DNA of 13,235 nt from a virus (Duplodnaviria; Heunggongvirae; Uroviricota; Caudoviricetes). Positions 199 to 11,358 of the stretch are shown piece after piece. Location: IMG/VR virus record IMGVR_UViG_2778260996_000018. One strand, 5' to 3'. The translations under genes and the position numbers were made by a program. Below the pieces are notes generated by a model that was given only the letters and a program-made list of their open reading frames with translations, was not told where the DNA came from and made no database searches. Every line of letters begins with the position of its first letter. Position 1 is the first letter of the stretch.

Positions 199-1917
199 AT
201 GATTTTTAGGGATAGCTTGAGAGTATTACCTTATGGTCGAGTAGATAATGATTTCTTCCAGATAGAAGAAAGACGTTCATGGAATGCAGGGCGATATTAT
301 TGGTCTAATAGAAGGATTTTTGGTTATATTGGAATTACTCAATCCAGTAATAAAGAGCTGAAAGATAAGTCGGGGAGAGAGGGATTCATAAGAAACCAGG
401 CTGCAAGAGAACTGAAAACTATTATATCTAATTTGTTAACTGAACTTGCTGATAGATTTTTTGGTTCACGTTCTGATGACCGTAAAGAGCTTTTAGAACA
501 AGTTAAGCGTGAAAAAGAGTTAAGAAAATCTGCTCAACAACAAGCTCGAAAATCAACACAAAAAAGTTTTTCAGAAGCTTTGAAGAATCAGACACCAGTT
601 CTTGATGCTTCCTTGGAGGCTGTTAAAAGGCTGAAAACTAAGCTTGATAAAACTGATGGTTCGTTAGATTTAAACTATCTTAAAATTATAGACAGTGATC
701 TTACAAACTTAGATGCGTTGCGCAGTGAAATTAAAACGCCTATCAAACCTCCAAAACTTGGAATGTATGAAGAGAAATATAGAGACTACAGAGATAAATT
801 TAATGAGTTCTCTGCGTATATTCTACAAATGAAGTTAGCAATTAATAAACTTGATTCTGAATTAAATAAACTTGAGCCTTCATTGTCAGCGAAAAATCAC
901 CTTGAAAAAAATCAAGGTATTATTAATTCTAAACTAACTAAGTTTAATAACACGATAGAGGAGAAGATACATTCTCTTTTAAAAAAATGGGCCGATGAAA
1001 TAAAGGTTGATCGAAGTGATTATTATGCTAAAACTATATCAGTTGTTGATTCAATAGATAATGATTCACAAATTGAAAATGTGTTTAATTTGCTCGATAG
1101 TTTATATGTTGAGTCAGTTGATACCCTAACTTTCAAATATCAATCAATAATAAAAGGTCTCGATAGATTATTTGAAGGTATAAACTTAGATTCAGCATTC
1201 TCATTATCTGAAGAAGAACGCTCATATTTTGAAGAAAAAGCTAAAAGTTTAAACGCGCTTGCACAGTTAGGTATTAGTGTTGAGATAATATCTCATGAAC
1301 TTGAAGAAATGGATTCTATGGTAACCAGAGGACTAAACTCTCTTCCTACTTCTGTAAAAGAACACCCTGGTTTTTCATTGGCGTTAAATGCTCACAGATC
1401 GCTTACTCAACAAATACGTTTCTTATCACCTTTGAAAATATCAGGTTATCAATCCAGGCAGAGAATAACTGGAAAAAATATCATGGATTATGTCCTGAAG
1501 TTCTTTGGGGAGCGTTTCGAACGGCAACGAATAACTATTGAATTTAGTGAAGAGTTTAAGCAAATCGCAATAACAGATATACCATCAAGGATCTATCCTG
1601 TTTTTACTAATATTATCAACAATGCAATGTATTGGGTCAGTCTGTCAAATAATAGGCTCATAAAGATTGGTTTTGTGAATTCTTTGGTTATCATAGCAAA
1701 TTCTGGTCCGGCAATTGATACCGATGATATCCCGCGACTATTTGAACTATTTTATAGCAAAAGAGCAAATGGACATGGGGTAGGTCTGTATCTATGTCGA
1801 GAAAACCTTGCTGTTGCACATCATAAAATATGGTATTCAGAACCTGATGAAGGCGATAACTATTTAATAAAAGATGACGCTAATTTTGTGATCCAGTTCA
1901 ATGGAGTGGAGTTCTAA
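199..1917 (+). CDS. Cytoplasmic sensor histidine-kinase-like protein (unknown N-terminal region, long coiled coil, C-terminal HisKA + HATPase_c)
   Basis: 572-aa ORF. Motifs read from the translation in canonical order: H-box-like ISHELEEMDS, N-box FTNIINNAMYW, G1 IANSGPAID, F-box-like FELFYS, G2 GHGVGLYL. Central ~250 aa is K/E/L-rich (coiled-coil-like); no hydrophobic TM segment. AGGA lies 4 nt upstream of ATG 199. The frame is open without a start codon from 73 to 198, so a 5' truncation cannot be excluded. Confidence 0.75.
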   Translation: MIFRDSLRVLPYGRVDNDFFQIEERRSWNAGRYYWSNRRIFGYIGITQSSNKELKDKSGREGFIRNQAARELKTIISNLLTELADRFFGSRSDDRKELLEQVKREKELRKSAQQQARKSTQKSFSEALKNQTPVLDASLEAVKRLKTKLDKTDGSLDLNYLKIIDSDLTNLDALRSEIKTPIKPPKLGMYEEKYRDYRDKFNEFSAYILQMKLAINKLDSELNKLEPSLSAKNHLEKNQGIINSKLTKFNNTIEEKIHSLLKKWADEIKVDRSDYYAKTISVVDSIDNDSQIENVFNLLDSLYVESVDTLTFKYQSIIKGLDRLFEGINLDSAFSLSEEERSYFEEKAKSLNALAQLGISVEIISHELEEMDSMVTRGLNSLPTSVKEHPGFSLALNAHRSLTQQIRFLSPLKISGYQSRQRITGKNIMDYVLKFFGERFERQRITIEFSEEFKQIAITDIPSRIYPVFTNIINNAMYWVSLSNNRLIKIGFVNSLVIIANSGPAIDTDDIPRLFELFYSKRANGHGVGLYLCRENLAVAHHKIWYSEPDEGDNYLIKDDANFVIQFNGVEF

Positions 1918-3667
1918 TATGACAGTGGCAAATTATAATTCTCTTGTCCAGAAAACTTTCTGCGAAAATGCAATTCGTTCCGTTGTCATGATTGATGACG
2001 ATTTTCTGACGTATTCTGAATCAATCAGGGCGTTGAATAACGAAGTTGATTTAGACTACAACAAAATTGACTCATCTAAACGAGCCGCTACTCTTGAGAG
2101 CTTTTTTCAATCTAAAAATATGATTTGTGATGTTGACAATGGTTCTGTTAATTTCGATGTGGATCGGATTAGAAAATCAGATCTTATTATTGTAGATTAT
2201 CATCTTGATAATAATGCACCTGATAAAACACTTAAACTATTACAAGATTTGAAAGACTCCGATCATTTAAATATGATTGTAATATATACTAGAGAGAATT
2301 TAGAAACGGTTTGGATGCAGATATCATCGACTCTCAAAGGTGCTCTGGATATCAACAGCTTGATCATTGACTACGATAATGAAGATGTCCAAAGTTATTG
2401 GGAAGACGTTGTATTACCGAACTTAAATGATAATGGTAATAAAGCTCTCACAAGAGATGAAACAATAGCCTATATTAAAGACAGTAAGCCTTGTAGAAGA
2501 ATTAAAAGATTAATACATGATGATGCTGTGTTGGAGGAACAAAAGGATAAAAACTTCATTGCAAAAATGATTGCAGAATATGCTGTGTCTAGAAATGCAA
2601 TTATTTCTAGCAACACATCTGGCAATGTCATTCGGGGTGATGAAAGCGGAGTAAAATGGATTCAATGTGGTAATATCTTTGTCTCCCTATTTCATAAGGT
2701 TCAAGATGATCATGAAAACGATGGAGATAGGATTTGGCAAACTCTCAATGATTCTCTCATTGAATGGAAACCATCTTATTATCAGTTAATAAAATCTGAA
2801 ATTCAGAATGCAATCGAAGCTGAGGCTTTATCTTTTGTAAATCATTTGGCTAACGATCATTACGGTCAAGCTGCGTGGTTAAATGAGATATTAAAATCAG
2901 ACTCGCCTGATATTAGATGTAGAAATATTGACTTTGTATTTGGTAATTTATCAGAAGAGCTTTATCAAAGACTTAAAAATAATAATACGCTGGATGAATT
3001 TATCAAAAGTGTTTTTGATAGCTATTCAAATGAATACGCTAACAGCGGAGTTGCTGCATTGCTCCAATATTGCTCTTCAAAAATGGATCTGCCATCAAAT
3101 AATGATACTTATCACGAAATGTATCATGCTTTAAATATGAATTTGTCTTCAAAGAATTTTGAAGATGGTCATATTTCTACTGGCACTATTTTCTTTGATA
3201 CAGAGTCGAACAAATGGTATTTATGTGTATCTGCGGCATGTGATTTGGTTCCTACTCAGGGTAACGACCCTCACCATGTAAGATTAAGTCCGCACAGGCT
3301 CATTAAAGTTCTGGAGCTTTTTAACGCCAGTCAGAGTAAAGCATTGCCATTTGCTGAACATTCGAAATATATATATGTAATGCATAAAAATCAAAGAAAA
3401 TATCTCTCTATTTTCGAAGGGGATAAAACGCTTCCTGTTGTTGATTATATGGTGGTGTTGAATCATGGAACAACAGTTGATGGCGAAGAAAAAAATATTA
3501 TTTCTGCCGTGTTTTTAAGTAATATGGATGGCAACGTGCAAAATGTTCCTGTCCGACTCAAACTTAAATCTCAACTGAGAACTGGTTATGCAGAAAGATA
3601 TCAGGCTATAGCGTCTCAGTATAGCTCAAGGATTGGTGTGGATTATGTATCAATGATGCTACCATAA
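1901..3667 (+). CDS. Receiver (REC) domain protein fused to a ~430-aa uncharacterised C-terminal output domain
   Basis: 588-aa ORF. N-terminal receiver signature in order: VVMIDDD (acidic pocket), DLIIVDYHLDNN (phospho-acceptor Asp), NMIVIYTRE (conserved Thr). No HTH or other motif recognisable in the C-terminal part. Overlaps the kinase gene by 17 nt; the alternative start ATG 1919 sits just after the kinase stop and is preceded by GGAGTGGAG, so it may be the true start. Confidence 0.7.
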   Translation: MEWSSNMTVANYNSLVQKTFCENAIRSVVMIDDDFLTYSESIRALNNEVDLDYNKIDSSKRAATLESFFQSKNMICDVDNGSVNFDVDRIRKSDLIIVDYHLDNNAPDKTLKLLQDLKDSDHLNMIVIYTRENLETVWMQISSTLKGALDINSLIIDYDNEDVQSYWEDVVLPNLNDNGNKALTRDETIAYIKDSKPCRRIKRLIHDDAVLEEQKDKNFIAKMIAEYAVSRNAIISSNTSGNVIRGDESGVKWIQCGNIFVSLFHKVQDDHENDGDRIWQTLNDSLIEWKPSYYQLIKSEIQNAIEAEALSFVNHLANDHYGQAAWLNEILKSDSPDIRCRNIDFVFGNLSEELYQRLKNNNTLDEFIKSVFDSYSNEYANSGVAALLQYCSSKMDLPSNNDTYHEMYHALNMNLSSKNFEDGHISTGTIFFDTESNKWYLCVSAACDLVPTQGNDPHHVRLSPHRLIKVLELFNASQSKALPFAEHSKYIYVMHKNQRKYLSIFEGDKTLPVVDYMVVLNHGTTVDGEEKNIISAVFLSNMDGNVQNVPVRLKLKSQLRTGYAERYQAIASQYSSRIGVDYVSMMLP

Positions 3668-3680
3668 TTATTATATTTTA

Positions 3681-3720
3681 GGCGTGGTGATTTTTTTTCG
3701 CCATGCCTATTTTATATTTA
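3681..3720 (+). terminator. Possible weak intrinsic terminator after the receiver-domain gene
   Basis: ggcgtgg (3681-3687) can pair with ccatgcc (3701-3707) including one G-U pair, followed by a T-rich run tattttatattta. The loop is long and U-rich, so this is atypical. Confidence 0.3.
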
Positions 3721-3738
3721 TCATCACAATGATGTTGT

Positions 3739-4155
3739 TTATTTTTGTTTAAGTCTTCTAAGCTTCATGCATTCTAATGAGAATAATAATAGAGTTGTGC
3801 TGTATATAAAGCCAGAGTTAGTTAATAACTTTAAATTTAATGCTTCAGGATTTTCACTGAGAAAGTGAAAGGCATAAACTAAGTATACAGCTAAAGTAGC
3901 CGTTCCAATTGTTGGTCCAATATCGCCTTGATCATGAGGTTCAAGGTTTACATTGAACTTGAAGATTAGCCATTCAAATCCCCAAGTAAAAAAAACAACT
4001 AATATCATGGCTGCGAATAATTTCGCGATGTTATCTGCTGATGGATTCATCAGAACAGATTGTTTCTGAAAAAATTCACAAAGTGAGAGTCCGAAAAAAA
4101 TAAAAAAAAGTGGTCTGGAACTAAATTTTTCAAAAACTTTGAATAGGGTTTCCAT
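3739..4155 (-). CDS. Small polytopic membrane protein (about 4 predicted TM helices), function unknown
   Basis: 138-aa ORF with four hydrophobic stretches (PLFFIFFGLSLCEFF, LFAAMILVVFFTWGFEWLIF, GPTIGTATLAVYLVYAFHFL, GFIYSTTLLLFSL). Starts 38 bp downstream of the integrase stop on the same strand, with a GAAGG-like sequence upstream of the ATG. Confidence 0.5.
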   Translation of the reverse strand: METLFKVFEKFSSRPLFFIFFGLSLCEFFQKQSVLMNPSADNIAKLFAAMILVVFFTWGFEWLIFKFNVNLEPHDQGDIGPTIGTATLAVYLVYAFHFLSENPEALNLKLLTNSGFIYSTTLLLFSLECMKLRRLKQK

Positions 4156-4193
4156 TTTCTTTACCTTCAGGATTATATTAGCTATTCTGATAC

Positions 4194-5465
4194 TTAGGCT
4201 ACCAGAGCATTTGATCTTTGAGCTTGAACGTAATCACTCCACCATTGCATCAAACTCTGTCGCTCTATCAGATATTCTGCACGATTGTATGCTGCGATAA
4301 TTTCATCTTTTTTCGAGTGGGCAAGCGCTGCCTCAAGAACTTCAGCTCTGAATTTACCAGACTCCTCTGCCGCTGTTCGTGCAATAGAACGCATACCGTG
4401 AGCTACAAGCTCGCCTCCGAACCCCATTCGGATGATAGCTGCGTTGGCTGTTTGTTCATGCATATGATTAAGAGGCGCTTTTATGCTGGGGAAAACCCAT
4501 TCTCTATGCCCACTTATTGATTTCATTAATTCAAGGATGCGCAAAGCTTCTTTACTCAAAGGAACTTTGTGAAGCTTTTTCATTTTCATGAAATCAGCAG
4601 GAATGTTCCAAATGCTGTTGGTTGTATCAATATCAGACCACCTTGCGCGAACGGCTTCACCCGGACGAACCCATGTCAACAATTGCCATTCAATTAGCAT
4701 ACGTGTTTCCAACCGGATTGACGCATTCGTCAAAGATTCCATAAACCTTGGCAATTCGCTTGGGGGAAGGGCAGGCATATTTTGCTTTTTTGGTTTACTG
4801 AATCTTTGACCAAGGTTGTCAGCCGGGTTGAACTCAATAAGTTCTTCAGTAGCTGCCCACCGGAAGATTTCATTCAGACGTGAAATGATACGGCGTAGAG
4901 TTTCCAATACGCCTCGTTGCTCAATAGGATCAAGGTGTTGTTTTAAGAGCTTAGGTCGGATCTCATTGATAGGGACATTACCCAGACCGGGAAAGACATT
5001 TCTCTCTAAGCTGCGCCAGATGTCTGCTGCATGGTCTTGTGAGATACCTGATGTCTTTACCTTCTCATCTAACCATTTCCGCGCTACGGCTTGGAGAGTG
5101 TGCTCAGTAGCACTCTTTAATGCCTTCGCCTTATCGTTGTTATGGATTTGGGGATCAACACCATTTGCCAGAAAGGAGAGATATTCATCACGTAAGGCTC
5201 TGGCTCTTGCAAGGGTAAGGTGAGGATATGTCCCAAGGCTCATTTTGGTTCTTTTCTTGCTCACTGGTACTGCATACCTGAAATACCAATTTTTCTTGCC
5301 TCCTTTCGCCAAAGGAGCGATTCGTAGAATCAGACCATCACCGTCAAACAAGTTGATTTCTTTATCGGCTGGCTTGGTGCTTTTGATTTCAGTGTCAGTG
5401 AGCTTCTTAGCGATTTTTGCCATTTTGGGACCCTCGGTTTTTGGACCCTTCTTAGTGGGTCCCAT
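4194..5465 (-). CDS. int: P4-type tyrosine site-specific integrase
   Basis: 423-aa ORF. N-terminal arm-binding-type motif (LTDTEIKS..KP..KEINLFDGDGLILRI..GKKNWYFRY) typical of P4-family integrases; C-terminal catalytic region with VAHGMRSIARTAAE (H-x-x-R) and the terminal tyrosine region IIAAYNRAEYLIERQ. The more likely start is the internal ATG at 5423 (MAKIAKKLTDTEIK), which has a GAGGG Shine-Dalgarno; the first ATG at 5465 has none. The start points at the ssrA remnant, as with intA next to ssrA in E. coli K-12. Confidence 0.9.
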   Translation of the reverse strand: MGPTKKGPKTEGPKMAKIAKKLTDTEIKSTKPADKEINLFDGDGLILRIAPLAKGGKKNWYFRYAVPVSKKRTKMSLGTYPHLTLARARALRDEYLSFLANGVDPQIHNNDKAKALKSATEHTLQAVARKWLDEKVKTSGISQDHAADIWRSLERNVFPGLGNVPINEIRPKLLKQHLDPIEQRGVLETLRRIISRLNEIFRWAATEELIEFNPADNLGQRFSKPKKQNMPALPPSELPRFMESLTNASIRLETRMLIEWQLLTWVRPGEAVRARWSDIDTTNSIWNIPADFMKMKKLHKVPLSKEALRILELMKSISGHREWVFPSIKAPLNHMHEQTANAAIIRMGFGGELVAHGMRSIARTAAEESGKFRAEVLEAALAHSKKDEIIAAYNRAEYLIERQSLMQWWSDYVQAQRSNALVA

Positions 5466-5588
5466 TCAGGGTGCCATAACTCGTAGTTCTCAGCAATTCT
5501 CACTGGACGACAATAGACGTAAAAAAGCCCGCAGAGCTTGTGCTGTGTGGGCTTAGTAGACTTCATTGAACTTCAAACAACTAAAAAG

Positions 5589-5624
5589 TGGTGGAGCTGG
5601 CGGGAGTTGAACCCGTATCCGAAA
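5589..5624 (-). other. Remnant of the 3' end of ssrA (tmRNA): attachment-site repeat, not an intact gene
   Basis: tggtggagctggcgggagttgaacccgtatccgaaa matches the reverse complement of the E. coli tmRNA 3' terminus (T-arm, acceptor 3' strand, CCA) with 2 mismatches, from memory. Sequence beyond 5625 has no resemblance to the rest of ssrA (no tag-peptide region). Confidence 0.8.
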
Positions 5625-5881
5625 AATTCTTAACCAATTGAATATTAATGATTTTTCTAATTTAAAATACCTCACGTGCATTTTACGTGCATATTGTAGT
5701 ACCTCTAACGTCCTGATTCTGTCCAACATTTTGAAGTGTTTAGGCGCCACTGGGGCGGTGATTAGCGCTGTTTTGTGCTGTTCATAGCACTTCAAGACTA
5801 TTCAATTCAGAGCAATCGTTGAAGAATTACCCGTAAGGTAATATCATACTATTTAGGTAACTGCGGTTATCACCATCAAGG

Positions 5882-5918
5882 GCCACTGATGACGCTGTTA
5901 TCATCAGTGGCTTTTTGT
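5882..5918 (+). terminator. Intrinsic (rho-independent) terminator-like hairpin with no obvious upstream plus-strand gene
   Basis: Perfect 11-bp stem gccactgatga / tcatcagtggc with 8-nt loop cgctgtta, followed by ctttttgt. The reverse complement is not followed by a T-tract, so it is plus-strand specific. Confidence 0.6.
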
Positions 5919-5958
5919 ACCTTCACTGCACAGCCAGTGAAGTGTTGAGGAGACTAGC

Positions 5959-6300
5959 ATGAGAACAGTAGCGAGAAGATCGATACAGACGATTGAGCGT
6001 CGGACTCAACTCGTCAGTTCTTTTGTTGACTCAAACACAGCAAACGAGTTCTTCGTGAGAAGACTGAGTGATCGTGTCTCCCCGGCACGTCAGCTGTTTA
6101 TTGTGACATTGAACAATGAGGTTCGTGACGGTGACGTGATCCCGTTCGCTGAGATCGCCATGAACAAAGAAAAATTGCGCTATGTTGTGAAGCCAGCAGA
6201 TCAGTATCCTCAGTATGTAAGCAGTAATCTGCTGAAGAAAATTGAAGCGGCAATTGCTCTATACATGCAGAAGAACTACAGGGAAATTAACTACCATTAA
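5959..6300 (+). CDS. Hypothetical protein, first gene of a two-gene moron operon
   Basis: 113-aa ORF with GAGGAG Shine-Dalgarno 7-13 nt upstream of the ATG; followed 11 nt later by the next ORF. No family recognised. Confidence 0.55.
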   Translation: MRTVARRSIQTIERRTQLVSSFVDSNTANEFFVRRLSDRVSPARQLFIVTLNNEVRDGDVIPFAEIAMNKEKLRYVVKPADQYPQYVSSNLLKKIEAAIALYMQKNYREINYH

Positions 6301-6311
6301 AAGGTTGCTGA

Positions 6312-7079
6312 ATGGCTCCTGCGTTAATACCTTCATATAACAAGGACTTGAACATTACGCCATTTGGCGAAAAACGTCTTATTGAGTCATTCTATTTTTT
6401 CACTGCCGAGGCTGGCTTACTGAGGGCTGATGAGTACATTGTCAGTTCTGGTGAGTTTCAGTACTACTTGGATGTGTATCAACTGGGATGTTCCACCGAC
6501 GACTTTTTTTTAGACTATGGCAGTGACCTTCTTGATTCGAAGGTTCCAATGCAGGATCTGGTCAATACCCTCTTGGGTCTTGATATGGTAGACGATAACA
6601 AAACGATAAGAATAGGTCGTATACAGTTCAACGACTTTAATTTTATCGAAGAGAACGGTCAGATGATGACCGGAAAGCAAGTGAAAAGCGCTGTTATCGC
6701 ACAGGATTTCCAATCAGCAGGTTTGGCGCGTGAGATCTATAAAATGCTTGCGCGAAAGCATGAGTTTCTCATCTGCGATAACATTCAAAGTATTGCCGGT
6801 GGTGCTCTTTGGGCTAGTAGCATCATTCGAATTGCCGAGGTACGGATCTACAATTCACGCACGAAGAAATTTATGGACATACTTGGTCCAGGTGCGCGTG
6901 GCGTTTCAGGTACTTTGCCATGGAGTGCGAATGATCTGTCTGTAGATGAGATTGTTCGCTGGGGTCGTGCGTATGATGATGAAAACTGTTGTCGTCACAT
7001 TGTACATGTTATCTGTAAGGACCGACTCATTGACGATCAATTTCATGATTATGTTTCGATAGGTGGCGCGACAGAATAA
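6312..7079 (+). CDS. Hypothetical protein, second gene of the two-gene moron operon
   Basis: 255-aa ORF, soluble-looking, immediately followed by a strong terminator. No family recognised. Confidence 0.6.
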   Translation: MAPALIPSYNKDLNITPFGEKRLIESFYFFTAEAGLLRADEYIVSSGEFQYYLDVYQLGCSTDDFFLDYGSDLLDSKVPMQDLVNTLLGLDMVDDNKTIRIGRIQFNDFNFIEENGQMMTGKQVKSAVIAQDFQSAGLAREIYKMLARKHEFLICDNIQSIAGGALWASSIIRIAEVRIYNSRTKKFMDILGPGARGVSGTLPWSANDLSVDEIVRWGRAYDDENCCRHIVHVICKDRLIDDQFHDYVSIGGATE

Positions 7080-7084
7080 CCATC

Positions 7085-7115
7085 AAAAAGACCCGGCATT
7101 TGCCGGGTTTTTTCT
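7085..7115. terminator. Bidirectional intrinsic terminator between convergent genes
   Basis: aaaaag-a cccggc attt gccggg tttttt: GC stem with 4-nt loop, flanked by an A-tract upstream and a T-tract downstream. Sits between the stop of the 255-aa gene (7079) and the integrase stop (7121). Confidence 0.75.
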
Positions 7116-7120
7116 TCAAA

Positions 7121-8299
7121 TCACTTCTTCATTCCAGATTCCATTGCGGTTTTCCCGTCGTATTCAGCCAGGTATTTACCGTAATTGCGGAACAGCATTT
7201 CCGGCCCCTTATGCCCCATCTGCCCGGCAAGCCAGAAAAGGTTTACACCCTGGCTAATGTGTCTGGTGGCGAATGTGTGGCGCGTCTGGTACGGGTTACG
7301 GTAGCGCACACCAGCTTTTTTCAGGGTCGGCACCCATGCTTTTTTACGGATAGCGTCGGCGTTCGTCCAGGGATCTCCCGTTTTCGGATCGCTGAATATG
7401 AACTCACTTTTCATAAAGGTGTATTGCTTCTGCGCCTGCAGGGCCGCCAGCGCCTCACTGTTCAGCTCCACCTTACGGGTACCGGCTTTTGTCTTGGTGC
7501 CTTTAAGTACCCCTACGACACTGGCCGCCTGTATGTGCGCTGTATTACCTATAAAGTCGATATCGGTCCAACGTAATGCGCATAGCTCAGAGCTGCGTAG
7601 CCCTGTATTGAAGGCGAAGCGGAACAGATTCTGCCATTCCTGATACTTGCAGTGCTGATATATGGCACTGGTTTCCGCAGGCGCAAACGGATCAACTTCG
7701 TAATCGTCGGCGTTCGGTTTACTGTCGACCACGTGATACCGGCTGGCGCTGACAAGAGTTACCGGGTTAATAGTCAACAGGCCATCAGTTACAGCCTCAT
7801 CAATGGCGCTGCGCAGAAATGACAGGTTATTCCTGATTGTTTTCAGCTTAGTTTTTCGGCTGGCTATCCAATTTTTTAGTACCGCAGGCGTCAATTCTGT
7901 TACATGTAGTTTATGTAGTTCTGATAGTGCTGATAGACATTTTTCGTAACCGCCAATGGTTGACGGCGACAGATTGCGGTTCATGCAAATTTTCAGGTAT
8001 TCATCAAGATAGGACTTAATATTTTTGGTTTTCTTTACTACACCGAATAACTCCAGTTTTTTGGAACTGGGGAAATATTTCGCATATTCAAACGTTCCGC
8101 TGGCGATCTGATTTTGTATCTCCCCTAGCAGGCGCTCAGCATATTTAATACCACGTGTATTTGCCTCAAGCCGAGACAGGGGCTCCCTGCAAAGAACCCC
8201 TTTATATGTGAAAGTGATAACTAGTGTTGAAGCAGTTTTATGCTTACGAATAGTTACTCCTCTTGGCAGAGATAATAATCCTTGTTCTTTCTTGCCCAT
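7121..8299 (-). CDS. int: Lambda-type (phage) tyrosine integrase
   Basis: 392-aa ORF. Catalytic signature near the C-terminus: PYQTRHTFATRHISQGVNLFWLAGQMGHKGPEMLFRNYGKYL (R, H-x-x-R, H, Y). AGAGG Shine-Dalgarno upstream. Its 3' end faces the att remnant, as in lambda where int is transcribed toward attP. Confidence 0.9.
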   Translation of the reverse strand: MGKKEQGLLSLPRGVTIRKHKTASTLVITFTYKGVLCREPLSRLEANTRGIKYAERLLGEIQNQIASGTFEYAKYFPSSKKLELFGVVKKTKNIKSYLDEYLKICMNRNLSPSTIGGYEKCLSALSELHKLHVTELTPAVLKNWIASRKTKLKTIRNNLSFLRSAIDEAVTDGLLTINPVTLVSASRYHVVDSKPNADDYEVDPFAPAETSAIYQHCKYQEWQNLFRFAFNTGLRSSELCALRWTDIDFIGNTAHIQAASVVGVLKGTKTKAGTRKVELNSEALAALQAQKQYTFMKSEFIFSDPKTGDPWTNADAIRKKAWVPTLKKAGVRYRNPYQTRHTFATRHISQGVNLFWLAGQMGHKGPEMLFRNYGKYLAEYDGKTAMESGMKK

Positions 8300-8463
8300 T
8301 TTGAAACCTCTATTAAGTCGACCCAGCGTTCTTTAACTCCGTCGACTTTTAATACATGAACCCCTTCTTTCCATATTCCTCTTTGTATCCGTTTGTTAAC
8401 GGCATCAACCGTTTCTCCCGCGTCGCGGCAGTAGGTTGATATAGGCACGCAATCCAGCCCCAT
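8254..8463 (-). CDS. xis: Probable excisionase / small DNA-binding recombination directionality factor
   Basis: 69-aa ORF directly upstream of int and overlapping it by 46 nt (xis-int arrangement of lambdoid phages). Small basic protein; GAGGTGA Shine-Dalgarno. Assignment is by position and size, not by a recognised motif. Confidence 0.6.
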   Translation of the reverse strand: MGLDCVPISTYCRDAGETVDAVNKRIQRGIWKEGVHVLKVDGVKERWVDLIEVSKWARKNKDYYLCQEE

Positions 8464-8987: not shown

Positions 8988-9556
8988 TCATTCCGGATGC
9001 TCCTGAGCCACATTGAAATCGCCATGATCACGACAAGGCATCACAACAAATTCAGGATTGCCATACATTGAGTTGATGATGGAATCAAACTGAATTCTGA
9101 CCGCTTGCCCGTCACCGGAGGAACGTAACTGGACGGGAATAAATTTACGCTCACGACCAAACATCTTCTCTGGATAACTCAGGTAACCCGCCTGGATCAC
9201 CGGGTGTGTACAGAGGTCAAATTTTTTCGGAATGATGCGTTCCAAATCCGGAAAACAACCGTCCACCAATTTAATGCCGGTAATGGACAGCCGGCGCTGA
9301 AACTGGTCGCGATGAACAGGATCGGCTCTTTACTAAAAATCAGCTCTGTCGTTTCGGCTTTGGCCGGGACGCCACCTTCGAACTGGACAATGATGTTTTT
9401 CTTCGTCCGGATGCCGTGAGTCATGCGCAGTGCTACGAAACCATTGGTTGCCTCAATATGTTTTGGCGTGATGTGAAGACCGTTCAGGTAATAACGAACG
9501 TCGTTTTTAGCAGCGCACACCAGAGCGGCGCGAATAAGTTTTGACTGGATGATCAT
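8988..9556 (-). pseudogene. Sliding-clamp (DnaN, DNA polymerase III beta) domain II-III-like gene, split between two reading frames
   Basis: The N-part (ORF 9197-9556) contains DVRYYLNG, an exact 8-mer shared with E. coli DnaN as I recall it. The C-part (ORF 8988-9269 frame) contains KLVDGCFPD (DnaN: KLVDGRFPD) and EFVVMPCR (DnaN: AYVVMPMR) in the right order. The two halves are in different frames, separated by about 56-59 nt near 9287-9345 with in-frame stops. Confidence 0.5.
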
Positions 9557-10302
9557 GCTTTATCCTCCCATCCGATTACCTGAAAAAGCCCCATCTTCGG
9601 GTGATACCAGCGTGTGCCGCGTGGTTCAGCCTCTGACATCATTTGGTGGAACGCCGCCATAAATGTCTCAAGCTCGACGACAGCCCTGCGAGACAACAGA
9701 CCGTCCGGAGTCATAAATTCGTGCGTGTCGGTAGGGATGTGGTAGGCGTTGACCAGATTCCGACACTTGGCGTCACTCATTCCGCTTTTGGCTACCACCT
9801 GGCGGTAACCGACATATCCGGTGCGCATTGTGCCGCGTTTGATGTTCTCCACAGCTTTGGTGACCGTTTCGATCTTCTCTTCAACATGACTCAGGCGCTT
9901 CTGCTGGCGAACGGCATCGGCGGCCATTGCAGCGATCATCTCCATTTCCGTCAGCGGCGCGTGAGTTCGGAAATAGCTGTTAACCAGTTCGCGCTGAACC
10001 TGCCATGCAAGAGCATCGTTAAAAGGCTTCGTCAACATCAGGTAACCAGACTCGAAAAGAATGATCCCTTTGGCAGTTCGCGCGGCAAAGGCATCAGAAA
10101 GTGACTCCGTACGTATTACGTCCGCAGTCATTTCAAGAAAATCCACCCCTTCGATAAAGTGAGAACGGTTGCGGTTAAACGCAGCACGGGCGGTACCTTC
10201 CGGGCGCTGGTGGACGTCATCAATTATTGCAAATGTCACAACACGCTGACCGCGATATTCGATTACCGGAAACTGTTTGTTGTTGATGGTTACAATATTC
10301 AT
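9553..10302 (-). CDS. ORF6N-domain phage antirepressor-like protein
   Basis: N-terminus MNIVTINNKQFPVIEYRGQRVVTFAIIDDVHQRPEGTARAAFNRNRSHFIEGVDF resembles the ORF6N/antirepressor N-terminal domain. Start chosen at ATG 10302 (GGAG 6 nt upstream) rather than the ORF-track ATG at 10377, which would overlap the upstream gene. The stop overlaps the start of the clamp-like gene (ATGA). Confidence 0.6.
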   Translation of the reverse strand: MNIVTINNKQFPVIEYRGQRVVTFAIIDDVHQRPEGTARAAFNRNRSHFIEGVDFLEMTADVIRTESLSDAFAARTAKGIILFESGYLMLTKPFNDALAWQVQRELVNSYFRTHAPLTEMEMIAAMAADAVRQQKRLSHVEEKIETVTKAVENIKRGTMRTGYVGYRQVVAKSGMSDAKCRNLVNAYHIPTDTHEFMTPDGLLSRRAVVELETFMAAFHQMMSEAEPRGTRWYHPKMGLFQVIGWEDKA

Positions 10303-10345
10303 TTTTATCTCCAGACAGCCCGGCGTGTAATACCGGGCATATGTA

Positions 10346-11173
10346 TTACTTAACCTGAATAAATGGTGTGTTGGCACCGCTGGTCATGTATTGCGGCAGT
10401 GTACCGTTCCACTTGTTGATGGCTTCCAGCTCCATAACACCGGGGTTCTGGCGCAGAGCTTCACCGCGTAAACGAATAGCATCGGCTTCGGCCTGGGCTT
10501 TTGTGCGAATCGCATCTGCCTGTCCGGCAGCTTCCGCGCGCAACATGTTGGCTTCCGCTTCGCGCTGTTTTACTTCCTGCTCGCGTTGCAGGGTTTTCTG
10601 GTTCGCCGTGACTTTGGCATTAATGCTGTCGATAACAGTAGGTGGGTACTCCGGCTTACCCACATATGAGAGGCTCATTACCTGAATACCGATGGGCGTC
10701 ATTTCTTCCTGAATGTCTTTAAGAGCTGCATCCAGCAGCTCAGACTTGCCGCCGTCGATAAATTTGTCGGTGGTCATTTTGCTGGCCAGTCGGTTGAGTG
10801 CGTCGGCTATCTTCTGGCGCAGGTCGGTGTCGGTAATGTCGTCCACGCCTTTGCGGTAGGTCTGAAAGACTGTGGTAACTTTGGATGGATCAACTTTGTA
10901 GGCCACGCCGATGTGATAGCCGATGGTTGTACCGTCACTCATCTGGAAACTGAATGGATCATCGTAGGTCTTCATCTGCTTAAAGGTCGGGAAGATGTAA
11001 ACCTCAGTGTTCCATCCCGTCCAGTAGCGCCCAACACCGACCACTTCACCGACGCCTTTATCGTCGCCCAGTTTGTTTACTTTGATGCCCACATTACCAG
11101 GCTCAACGCGATCGCAACCGACAAGGCCAATGGTCGGCAGAACAAGGGCTAAAGCAAAAAGTAATTTTTTCAT
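10346..11173 (-). CDS. SPFH/Band-7 (prohibitin/HflK-like) domain lipoprotein
   Basis: 275-aa ORF. Signal peptide with lipobox (MKKLLFALALVLPTIGLVGC), SPFH-like core, and a C-terminal A/E/Q/R-rich coiled coil (QREQEVKQREAEANMLRAEAAGQADAIR...) as in HflK/HflC-type proteins. Confidence 0.8.
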   Translation of the reverse strand: MKKLLFALALVLPTIGLVGCDRVEPGNVGIKVNKLGDDKGVGEVVGVGRYWTGWNTEVYIFPTFKQMKTYDDPFSFQMSDGTTIGYHIGVAYKVDPSKVTTVFQTYRKGVDDITDTDLRQKIADALNRLASKMTTDKFIDGGKSELLDAALKDIQEEMTPIGIQVMSLSYVGKPEYPPTVIDSINAKVTANQKTLQREQEVKQREAEANMLRAEAAGQADAIRTKAQAEADAIRLRGEALRQNPGVMELEAINKWNGTLPQYMTSGANTPFIQVK

Positions 11174-11358
11174 CTTTTATCCTTAGAAAAAGAAAGACCC
11201 TTATAAATGGCATAAATGCAGGGCGGGGTCAGACACGCCAGAGCAAAGCCAGAAATCACTGCTACCGTATCCTTCATTGATATGAGGGCCGGAACGATTA
11301 ATCCGTAAATACATGTGATAATTGCCAGTGATATAACTATTCTGAAATAAATGTTCAT
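11170..11358 (-). CDS. Small two-TM membrane protein, translationally coupled to the SPFH lipoprotein gene
   Basis: 62-aa ORF with two hydrophobic helices (IVISLAIITCIYGLIVPALI, VAVISGFALACLTPPCIYAIY). Strong AGGAGG Shine-Dalgarno 4 nt upstream; ATGA stop/start overlap with the SPFH gene. Confidence 0.6.
   Translation of the reverse strand: MNIYFRIVISLAIITCIYGLIVPALISMKDTVAVISGFALACLTPPCIYAIYKGLSFSKDKR

Follow-up and report, generated by a model that had tools for sequence, protein, structure and literature searches.

What is the function of two genes that lie between the integrase gene (int) and the attachment site (att) of a lambdoid prophage and are read in the opposite direction to its other genes? 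The question is raised by the IMG/VR virus record IMGVR_UViG_2778260996_000018, a stretch of 13,235 nucleotides (nt) that is referred to here, in its entirety, as the window. Gene 1 (5959-6300, plus strand) codes for a protein of 113 amino acids (aa) and gene 2 (6312-7079, plus strand) for a protein of 255 aa. An earlier reading of the window, made from its letters alone and called here the original prediction, had proposed a two-gene moron carrying candidate lysogenic-conversion or defence cargo. The analysis showed that the two genes and their flanking signals, here called the cassette, are an uncharacterised GNAT-fold two-protein moron with a distinctive leader, found widely on clinically relevant phage-plasmids and plasmids. 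From its signals, the interval 5819-7114 would form one self-contained accessory transcription unit, made up of a promoter, a structured leader that itself contains a terminator, the two genes, which are close together for translation, and a closing terminator. A literature search found no paper on either gene.

The two genes and their place in the prophage

Both genes were confirmed as real. Each began with ATG behind a Shine-Dalgarno sequence (GAGGAG at 5948-5953 for gene 1 and AAGG before 6312 for gene 2), and the two were separated by 11 nt. Comparison with homologues of 86-94% identity gave ratios of nonsynonymous to synonymous substitutions (dN/dS) of 0.13 for gene 1 and 0.02-0.03 for gene 2; therefore, both genes are under purifying selection. 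The gene 1 product (basic, isoelectric point (pI) 9.8) matched phrog_2594 (9e-26) and the gene 2 product (acidic, pI 4.8) matched phrog_3307 (1e-59), both of which are PHROG families of unknown function. Homologues at 40-100% identity formed about 30 clusters per gene, from Enterobacterales throughout, and both sets came from the same contigs. Invariant residues were numerous in both protein families.

Gene 2 contained a homopolymer of eight T (T8; 6505-6512, plus strand), and alleles with seven T (T7) elsewhere shift the frame. Such alleles were present in the PhiR12 phages and in two IMG/VR contigs (L040 and L041), in which gene 2 is split, and the difference may reflect slippage, phase variation or sequencing error. 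Downstream of gene 2, an intrinsic terminator (7085-7114) contained the hairpin ACCCGGC-ATTT-GCCGGGT (7091-7108), with five A on its upstream side and six T on its downstream side. These flanks make the hairpin able to terminate in both directions, and it serves the cassette on the plus strand and int on the minus strand.

The window consists of two mobile elements that abut at ssrA, the gene for transfer-messenger RNA (tmRNA). The right element is the lambdoid prophage; its minus strand carries int (7121-8299; Arm-DNA-bind_2 and Phage_integrase domains; outside the cassette), the excisionase gene xis (8254-8463) and the early-left genes. A 3' fragment of ssrA at 5589-5625 (minus strand) corresponded to the att core and the end of the prophage: the sequence on the minus strand from 5625 to 5589, tttcggatacgggttcaactcccgccagctccacca, is that of the tmRNA 3' end and gave a partial Rfam tmRNA match (E=5e-5). 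No complete tRNA or tmRNA gene was found in the window by ARAGORN and Rfam, and ARAGORN detected no tmRNA gene because just the 3' fragment of ssrA is present. In nine other E. coli genomes carrying the pair, homology with the window began exactly at 5589 (query position 124) and the DNA to the left of it differed; therefore, the pair is part of the prophage and 5589 is the prophage end. These results agreed with the original prediction on the coordinates of the genes, their orientation opposite to the prophage operon, their location between int and att, and the bidirectional terminator. The GC content of the cassette (0.42-0.46) was slightly under that of the prophage interior.

Most relatives were without the pair. 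Of 5426 complete E. coli genomes, 133 contained the integrase (80-100% identity) and just 10 the pair. Prophages of O26/O111-type Shiga toxin-producing E. coli (STEC), with an int 94.6% identical, carried a single DUF4760 gene in the int-att slot, while in strains A8 and MS 115-1 (L062 and L063) int abutted the att region and the slot was empty. Since sibling ssrA prophages with 80-95% identical integrases have the DUF4760 gene or nothing at this position, the int-att interval is a variable cargo slot, and the moron that had been proposed there was upheld by the comparison. The DUF4760 gene is oriented like int (3062-3970 in E. coli O26 RM10386, L061) and was present in about 80 STEC genomes.

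Mobility and strict pairing of the two genes

A total of 59 loci were fetched from genomes, IMG/VR, GenBank phages and plasmids, and this number is a lower bound on the occurrence of the pair. Gene 1 was directly 5' of gene 2 in 58 of the 59 loci (the L040 contig stops inside gene 2), and the gap between the genes ranged from -16 to +23 nt. Almost every copy of the cassette had its own hairpin and T-run after gene 2, with L054 as the exception.

The int-att context of the pair was found in E. coli and Atlantibacter. In Yersinia, Leclercia and other siphovirus-type prophages, the pair was flanked by the tape-measure gene on one side and the major tail or chaperone genes on the other, and in Pantoea it was inside an E217-like (myovirus) baseplate cluster. 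It was beside the Q antiterminator gene in Buttiauxella, between the antirepressor and baseplate J in Xenorhabdus, and between a chloramphenicol acetyltransferase (CAT) gene and a tail-fibre gene in Photorhabdus. In Photorhabdus luminescens (L017), the CAT gene (4696-5364) was directly 5' of the cassette and tail-fibre genes were 3' of it. The entire cassette occurred twice in tandem (3967-5039 and 5633-6711) in Photorhabdus akhurstii (L021).

In hundreds of SSU5-like phage-plasmids, the pair (about 30% identity) occupied a fixed site flanked by the lysis genes and parA. The variability of insertion thus applied to the ssrA prophage family and did not extend to these elements. Gene 2 homologues were found in 374 PLSDB plasmids, mostly elements of about 110 kb from Klebsiella, Acinetobacter, Escherichia and Enterobacter, and also on Acinetobacter plasmids of 8.8-10 kb. 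Both genes were recognisable on the OXA-24 plasmid pDA33098-9-2 (hhalign probability 97% and 99%); therefore, the module is not confined to phages. On this plasmid (L064, 8771 bp; OXA-24-like) the pair was located at 2097-2417 and 2436-3170, adjoining genes for helix-turn-helix and Arc-family regulators.

The pair moves among unrelated phage backbones and plasmids, and its members are neither housekeeping nor structural genes, either of which would have spoken against the original prediction. Comparison of the sequences established the pair as a self-contained, horizontally mobile unit, which passes between the temperate phages, phage-plasmids and small plasmids that Enterobacterales and Acinetobacter carry.

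Gene 1 homologues were present in 484 plasmids. The plasmid counts of gene 1 and gene 2 were equal in Acinetobacter (112/112) and Enterobacter (44/44), and the excess of gene 1 was found mainly in Escherichia, where it is at least partly accounted for by a solitary 116-aa homologue in D6/RCS47-type phage-plasmids. These solitary homologues (2501-2851 in L069 and 2492-2842 in L070; hhalign 97-98%) were located between hot (Pol III theta) and humD, near phd/doc, and were without gene 2; they may serve as orphan regulators or counteract addiction. An equation of the gene 1 homologue in P1-like plasmids with P1 lxr was considered and dropped, since P1 itself gave no match. Gene 2 without gene 1 was not seen among the loci and plasmids surveyed. 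Judged by this pattern of occurrence, the small protein is an obligate partner of the large one.

Predicted folds and the structured leader

The original prediction had assigned neither protein to a family. This stood at the level of sequence (Pfam, NCBIfam and PADLOC) and was revised at the level of the predicted fold, where both proteins are assignable to the GNAT superfamily. Searches of the Protein Data Bank with single sequences and with profiles gave noise only for both proteins, and the assignment was made on AlphaFold2 (AF2) models built from family alignments. The models had a mean predicted local distance difference test score (pLDDT) of 75.7 and a predicted template modelling score (pTM) of 0.65 for the 113-aa protein, and a pLDDT of 77.2 and a pTM of 0.76 for the 255-aa protein.

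The gene 2 model contained a core (about residues 51-191) with its elements in GNAT order, together with N- and C-terminal extensions, and the predicted fold follows the GNAT succession beta1-alpha1-alpha2-beta2-beta3-beta4-alpha3-beta5-alpha4-beta6. After beta4, the stretch Q134-S-A-G137-L-A139 fits the coenzyme A (CoA) loop Q/R-x-x-G-x-G/A (motif A); this motif reads R-G-A-G-L-A in close homologues, and its glycine is lost in several distant members. Residues invariant in the wider family were P3, Q123, Y143, D156, Q159, W167 and W204, and the signature D156-N-x-Q159-[ST]-x-x-G-x-x-L-W167 follows beta5. An exhaustive profile search of 1.84 billion representatives returned 56 gene 2 relatives only (representatives at 50% identity), and the matches in the tail of this search fell in Acetyltransf_1 regions of multidomain proteins (E 1e-5 to 1e-4). 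The gene 2 protein of the window had no Pfam GNAT match above the gathering score; Acetyltransf_1 matches were obtained for 3 of 32 family members (best E = 0.007), and a BFVD fold search gave weak NAT_SF matches only. Taken with the model, the gene 2 product is most likely a divergent GNAT-fold, acyl-CoA-dependent acyltransferase.

The gene 1 model was a five-stranded antiparallel sheet with a long C-terminal helix, like the N-terminal half of a GNAT fold. No CoA-binding motif was present in the protein and no DNA-binding fold was predicted for it. Its N-terminus is basic and contains the invariant residues A5, R7, S8, Q10, T11 and I12. The median pI of the gene 1 family was 9.3, and the gene 2 family ranged from 4.6 to 5.6. 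The idea that the two genes are duplicates of each other was rejected, as hhalign detected no relationship between them.

Upstream of gene 1, a sigma-70-like promoter was predicted at 5819-5847 on the plus strand (TTGAAG, 17 nt, TATCAT), with a transcript start at about 5853-5856. Most leaders of the Enterobacteriaceae/Yersinia clade, to which the window belongs, matched TTGAnn-17-TAyyAT with 105-111 nt between the -10 element and ATG, and the distance from promoter to ATG was 71-103 nt in most leaders of the Photorhabdus/Xenorhabdus clade. The GTTG of the -35 region was invariant across four differing contexts.

The leader of the Enterobacteriaceae/Yersinia clade was about 100 nt long and contained three hairpins, P1, P2 and P3. 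P1 (5856-5871, plus strand) is an inverted repeat at the predicted transcript start, GGTAAC-TGCG-GTTATC in the window and GATAAC-N4-GTTATC in its clade form. Its helix was 87% paired, with changes on both sides in 3 of 5 pairs; it may be either an RNA hairpin or a palindromic operator, and the occurrence of G-U variants leans slightly towards RNA. P2 (5882-5916, plus strand) is an intrinsic terminator with an 11-bp stem, GCCACTGATGA / TCATCAGTGGC (5882-5911), followed by TTTTT about 42 nt 5' of the ATG. Ten pairs of P2 were 91.9% paired, four of them with compensatory changes, and in every leader of the clade its T-run ended 38-46 nt short of the ATG. P3 (5921-5942, plus strand; CTTCACTG-CACAGC-CAGTGAAG) stands immediately 5' of the Shine-Dalgarno sequence of gene 1, and nearly all homologous leaders had a hairpin with differing stem sequences at this position.

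The folding energy of the window leader was -40 kcal/mol (z = -3.4 against shuffles). Across 20 homologous leaders, 89.6% of the cells of P1 and P2 were paired, against 20-61% when the partners were slid; compensatory changes on both sides occurred in 8 P1/P2 pairs, and the covariation score was reached by 0 of 500 shuffles. The z-score and the covariation show that the structured leader is real, as had been proposed, and the terminator between promoter and gene 1 is a further feature of it. Rfam gave no family for the leader or terminator regions, just sub-threshold noise. A resemblance to a DnaA box after P1 (7 of 9 positions alike) was dismissed as insignificant.

P2 may act by attenuation, or by giving a short terminated RNA with read-through into the genes, and the leader, with its terminator placed between promoter and genes, is a candidate for a new attenuation element that is both compact and comparatively well supported. 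It is also possible, if doubtful, that P2 is an insulator against read-through from flanking phage genes and that the true promoter lies downstream of it. The cassette is downstream of same-strand late genes in most contexts, and one leader (L009) without P1 and the -10 region has retained the hairpin, both of which would suit an insulator. Against this, the interval between the T-run and the ATG is only about 42 nt and is already filled by P3 and the Shine-Dalgarno sequence; in most leaders the conserved -35 and -10 elements precede the hairpin, at a constant distance; and the Photorhabdus/Xenorhabdus clade has the promoter without such a hairpin.

Function, neighbouring elements and comparison with known systems

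The function that we favour, tentatively and at somewhat below an even chance, is that of a toxin-antitoxin-like addiction or defence/exclusion module with an acyltransferase as effector. The acyltransferase would modify a target of the cell or of an invading phage. The small protein would bind and restrain it, possibly also repressing the promoter through the P1 palindrome, and the leader terminator would hold basal expression low. This reading is suggested by the bicistron with the small gene before the large one, the palindrome at the promoter and the restriction of the pair to mobile elements, very small plasmids included. It is further suggested by the place of the pair beside partition genes (parA) and by the asymmetry of the pairing; orphan copies were seen of gene 1 but never of gene 2, as would be expected of a potentially harmful gene 2 under the control of gene 1.

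A number of results weigh against it. Neither protein had a usable family in Pfam or NCBIfam, and no toxin-antitoxin model was matched there; PADLOC-DB 2.0 gave no match at E <= 1 for either protein and so pointed to no known defence system. Both AF2 models are of moderate confidence only (pLDDT 76-77), and because the glycine of motif A is not conserved in distant family members, catalysis is not assured. Known GNAT toxins are basic tRNA binders, whereas the gene 2 protein is acidic throughout its family and 80 residues longer than they are. The gene 1 protein is without a ribbon-helix-helix (RHH) or other known antitoxin fold. At intermediate distances, gene 1 was conserved at 64-71% identity against 47-59% for gene 2, which is unusual for an antitoxin. 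The frameshifted alleles of gene 2, carried among others by PhiR12 phages propagated on K-12 and C, had been regarded as toxin decay, and this was withdrawn: they differ solely at the T7/T8 homopolymer and, as possible sequencing errors, are poor evidence for toxin loss.

A bolder form of the toxin-antitoxin-like reading, which is speculative and rather doubtful, would make the cassette a new class of two-protein conflict or addiction module. In it, an acidic GNAT effector would be restrained by a half-GNAT 'decoy', the leader attenuator (P1-terminator-P3) would set the ratio of the two products, and the solitary small genes in competing phage-plasmids would be anti-addiction factors.

Three other functions were weighed, each of them unlikely. 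The pair may encode a lysogenic-conversion or detoxification enzyme, in which the GNAT protein, with the small protein as a specificity or stability subunit, acetylates an antibiotic, a peptide-nucleotide toxin or a polyamine to the benefit of the lysogen or plasmid host. Resistance genes do occur next to the cassette; they may be there by coincidence, and the pair bears no resemblance to any resistance-gene family. Detoxifying GNATs normally act alone, and this improbable role would not explain why a basic partner is strictly required or why the leader is tightly attenuated. In counter-defence, the acyltransferase would inactivate a host immune protein or modify phage or plasmid components to evade defence. 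Small phage GNATs that act as anti-CRISPRs have a precedent in AcrVA5, and the cassette is carried by phages and plasmids only, in many lineages. It is also co-oriented with late genes in most phage contexts, so it would be read in lytic growth as well. We nevertheless give counter-defence a low probability.

The pair may, finally, be a regulatory or maintenance accessory of its element with an inactive GNAT domain, for example a basic DNA- or RNA-binding regulator tuned by the GNAT-fold protein. This has several observations on its side: the solitary gene 1 homologues in the maintenance/SOS region of D6-like phage-plasmids, the basic and invariant N-terminus of gene 1, the palindrome at the predicted transcript start, the degenerate CoA-loop glycine in distant gene 2 homologues, and the fixed site next to parA in SSU5-like elements. 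The absence of a predicted DNA-binding fold in gene 1 counts against it. Most lambdoid relatives, moreover, are without the pair, and its insertion points in structural operons are unrelated; those phages therefore do not require it as a regulator, and we hold a maintenance role of this kind to be improbable too.

The cassette is present on hundreds of clinically relevant elements, among them SSU5-like phage-plasmids of Klebsiella, E. coli, Enterobacter, Salmonella and Acinetobacter, a small OXA-24 carbapenemase plasmid, and prophages of pathogenic E. coli, Yersinia, Photorhabdus and Xenorhabdus. If the addiction or defence reading is true, it would represent an acyltransferase-based mechanism of an unusual sort, in which the partner protein is new in kind, and it would help to explain the persistence of these plasmids and phage-plasmids. 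The family is compact, so a few experiments would cover it.

Other features of the window were observed on both sides of the cassette. The left element, an ssrA-linked island (199-5465), contained a HATPase_c/HEF_HK protein (572 aa) overlapping a Response_reg_2 protein (588 aa), a 138-aa open reading frame (ORF) and a P4-type integrase. Its GC content was low (0.28-0.36), PADLOC gave no convincing match for it, and the island also adjoins other ssrA prophages in O26 and other E. coli. Directly 3' of the ssrA fragment, positions 5521-5598 (minus strand) gave a partial Rfam match to the small RNA IsrM (53 bits, E=2.7e-13), which is far under the gathering score of 376, and a terminator-like hairpin (5539-5525) lies within this stretch. 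The early-left operon of the prophage (9553-11358, minus strand) codes for an ORF6N-domain protein (274 aa), an SPFH/Band-7 protein (275 aa) with an N-terminal lipoprotein-like signal, and an overlapping hydrophobic ORF of 62 aa, all three of which may be further accessory cargo.

Among known systems, the type II GNAT/RHH toxin-antitoxins (TacAT, AtaRT, KacAT and ItaRT) are likewise bicistronic, with the small partner first and the large gene never alone. The cassette differs from them in that it has no Acetyltransf or DUF1778/RHH Pfam match, in its acidic 255-aa GNAT protein with extra N- and C-terminal regions, and in its basic partner with a half-GNAT-like fold in place of RHH. As it lacks both the RHH antitoxin and the Pfam-level matches of that family, the cassette was not filed there. 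AcrVA5 and other small phage GNATs are also phage-borne, have a GNAT fold that is minimal or divergent, and belong to no family at the Pfam level. The general fold is the only similarity detected, and the cassette codes for two proteins and is also found on plasmids.

With ToxIN-type operons and lambda pR'-tR', the cassette shares an intrinsic terminator between promoter and genes, so that downstream expression would be by read-through only. It does not have the tandem RNA repeats of toxI, and unlike lambda pR'-tR' it has no Q-binding element or sign of antitermination, the function of its leader being read from the sequence. The phage morons described by Hendrix and colleagues (lambda bor and lom, HK97 gp15) code for envelope proteins, whereas the predicted products here are cytoplasmic GNAT-fold proteins; the cassette further departs from them in its two genes, in its conserved 100-nt leader with an internal terminator and in being common to non-phage plasmids. 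It resembles these morons in being an extra unit with its own promoter and terminator, as predicted from its sequence, that stands between conserved phage genes, occurs in only some of the relatives and is probably not needed by the phage backbone.

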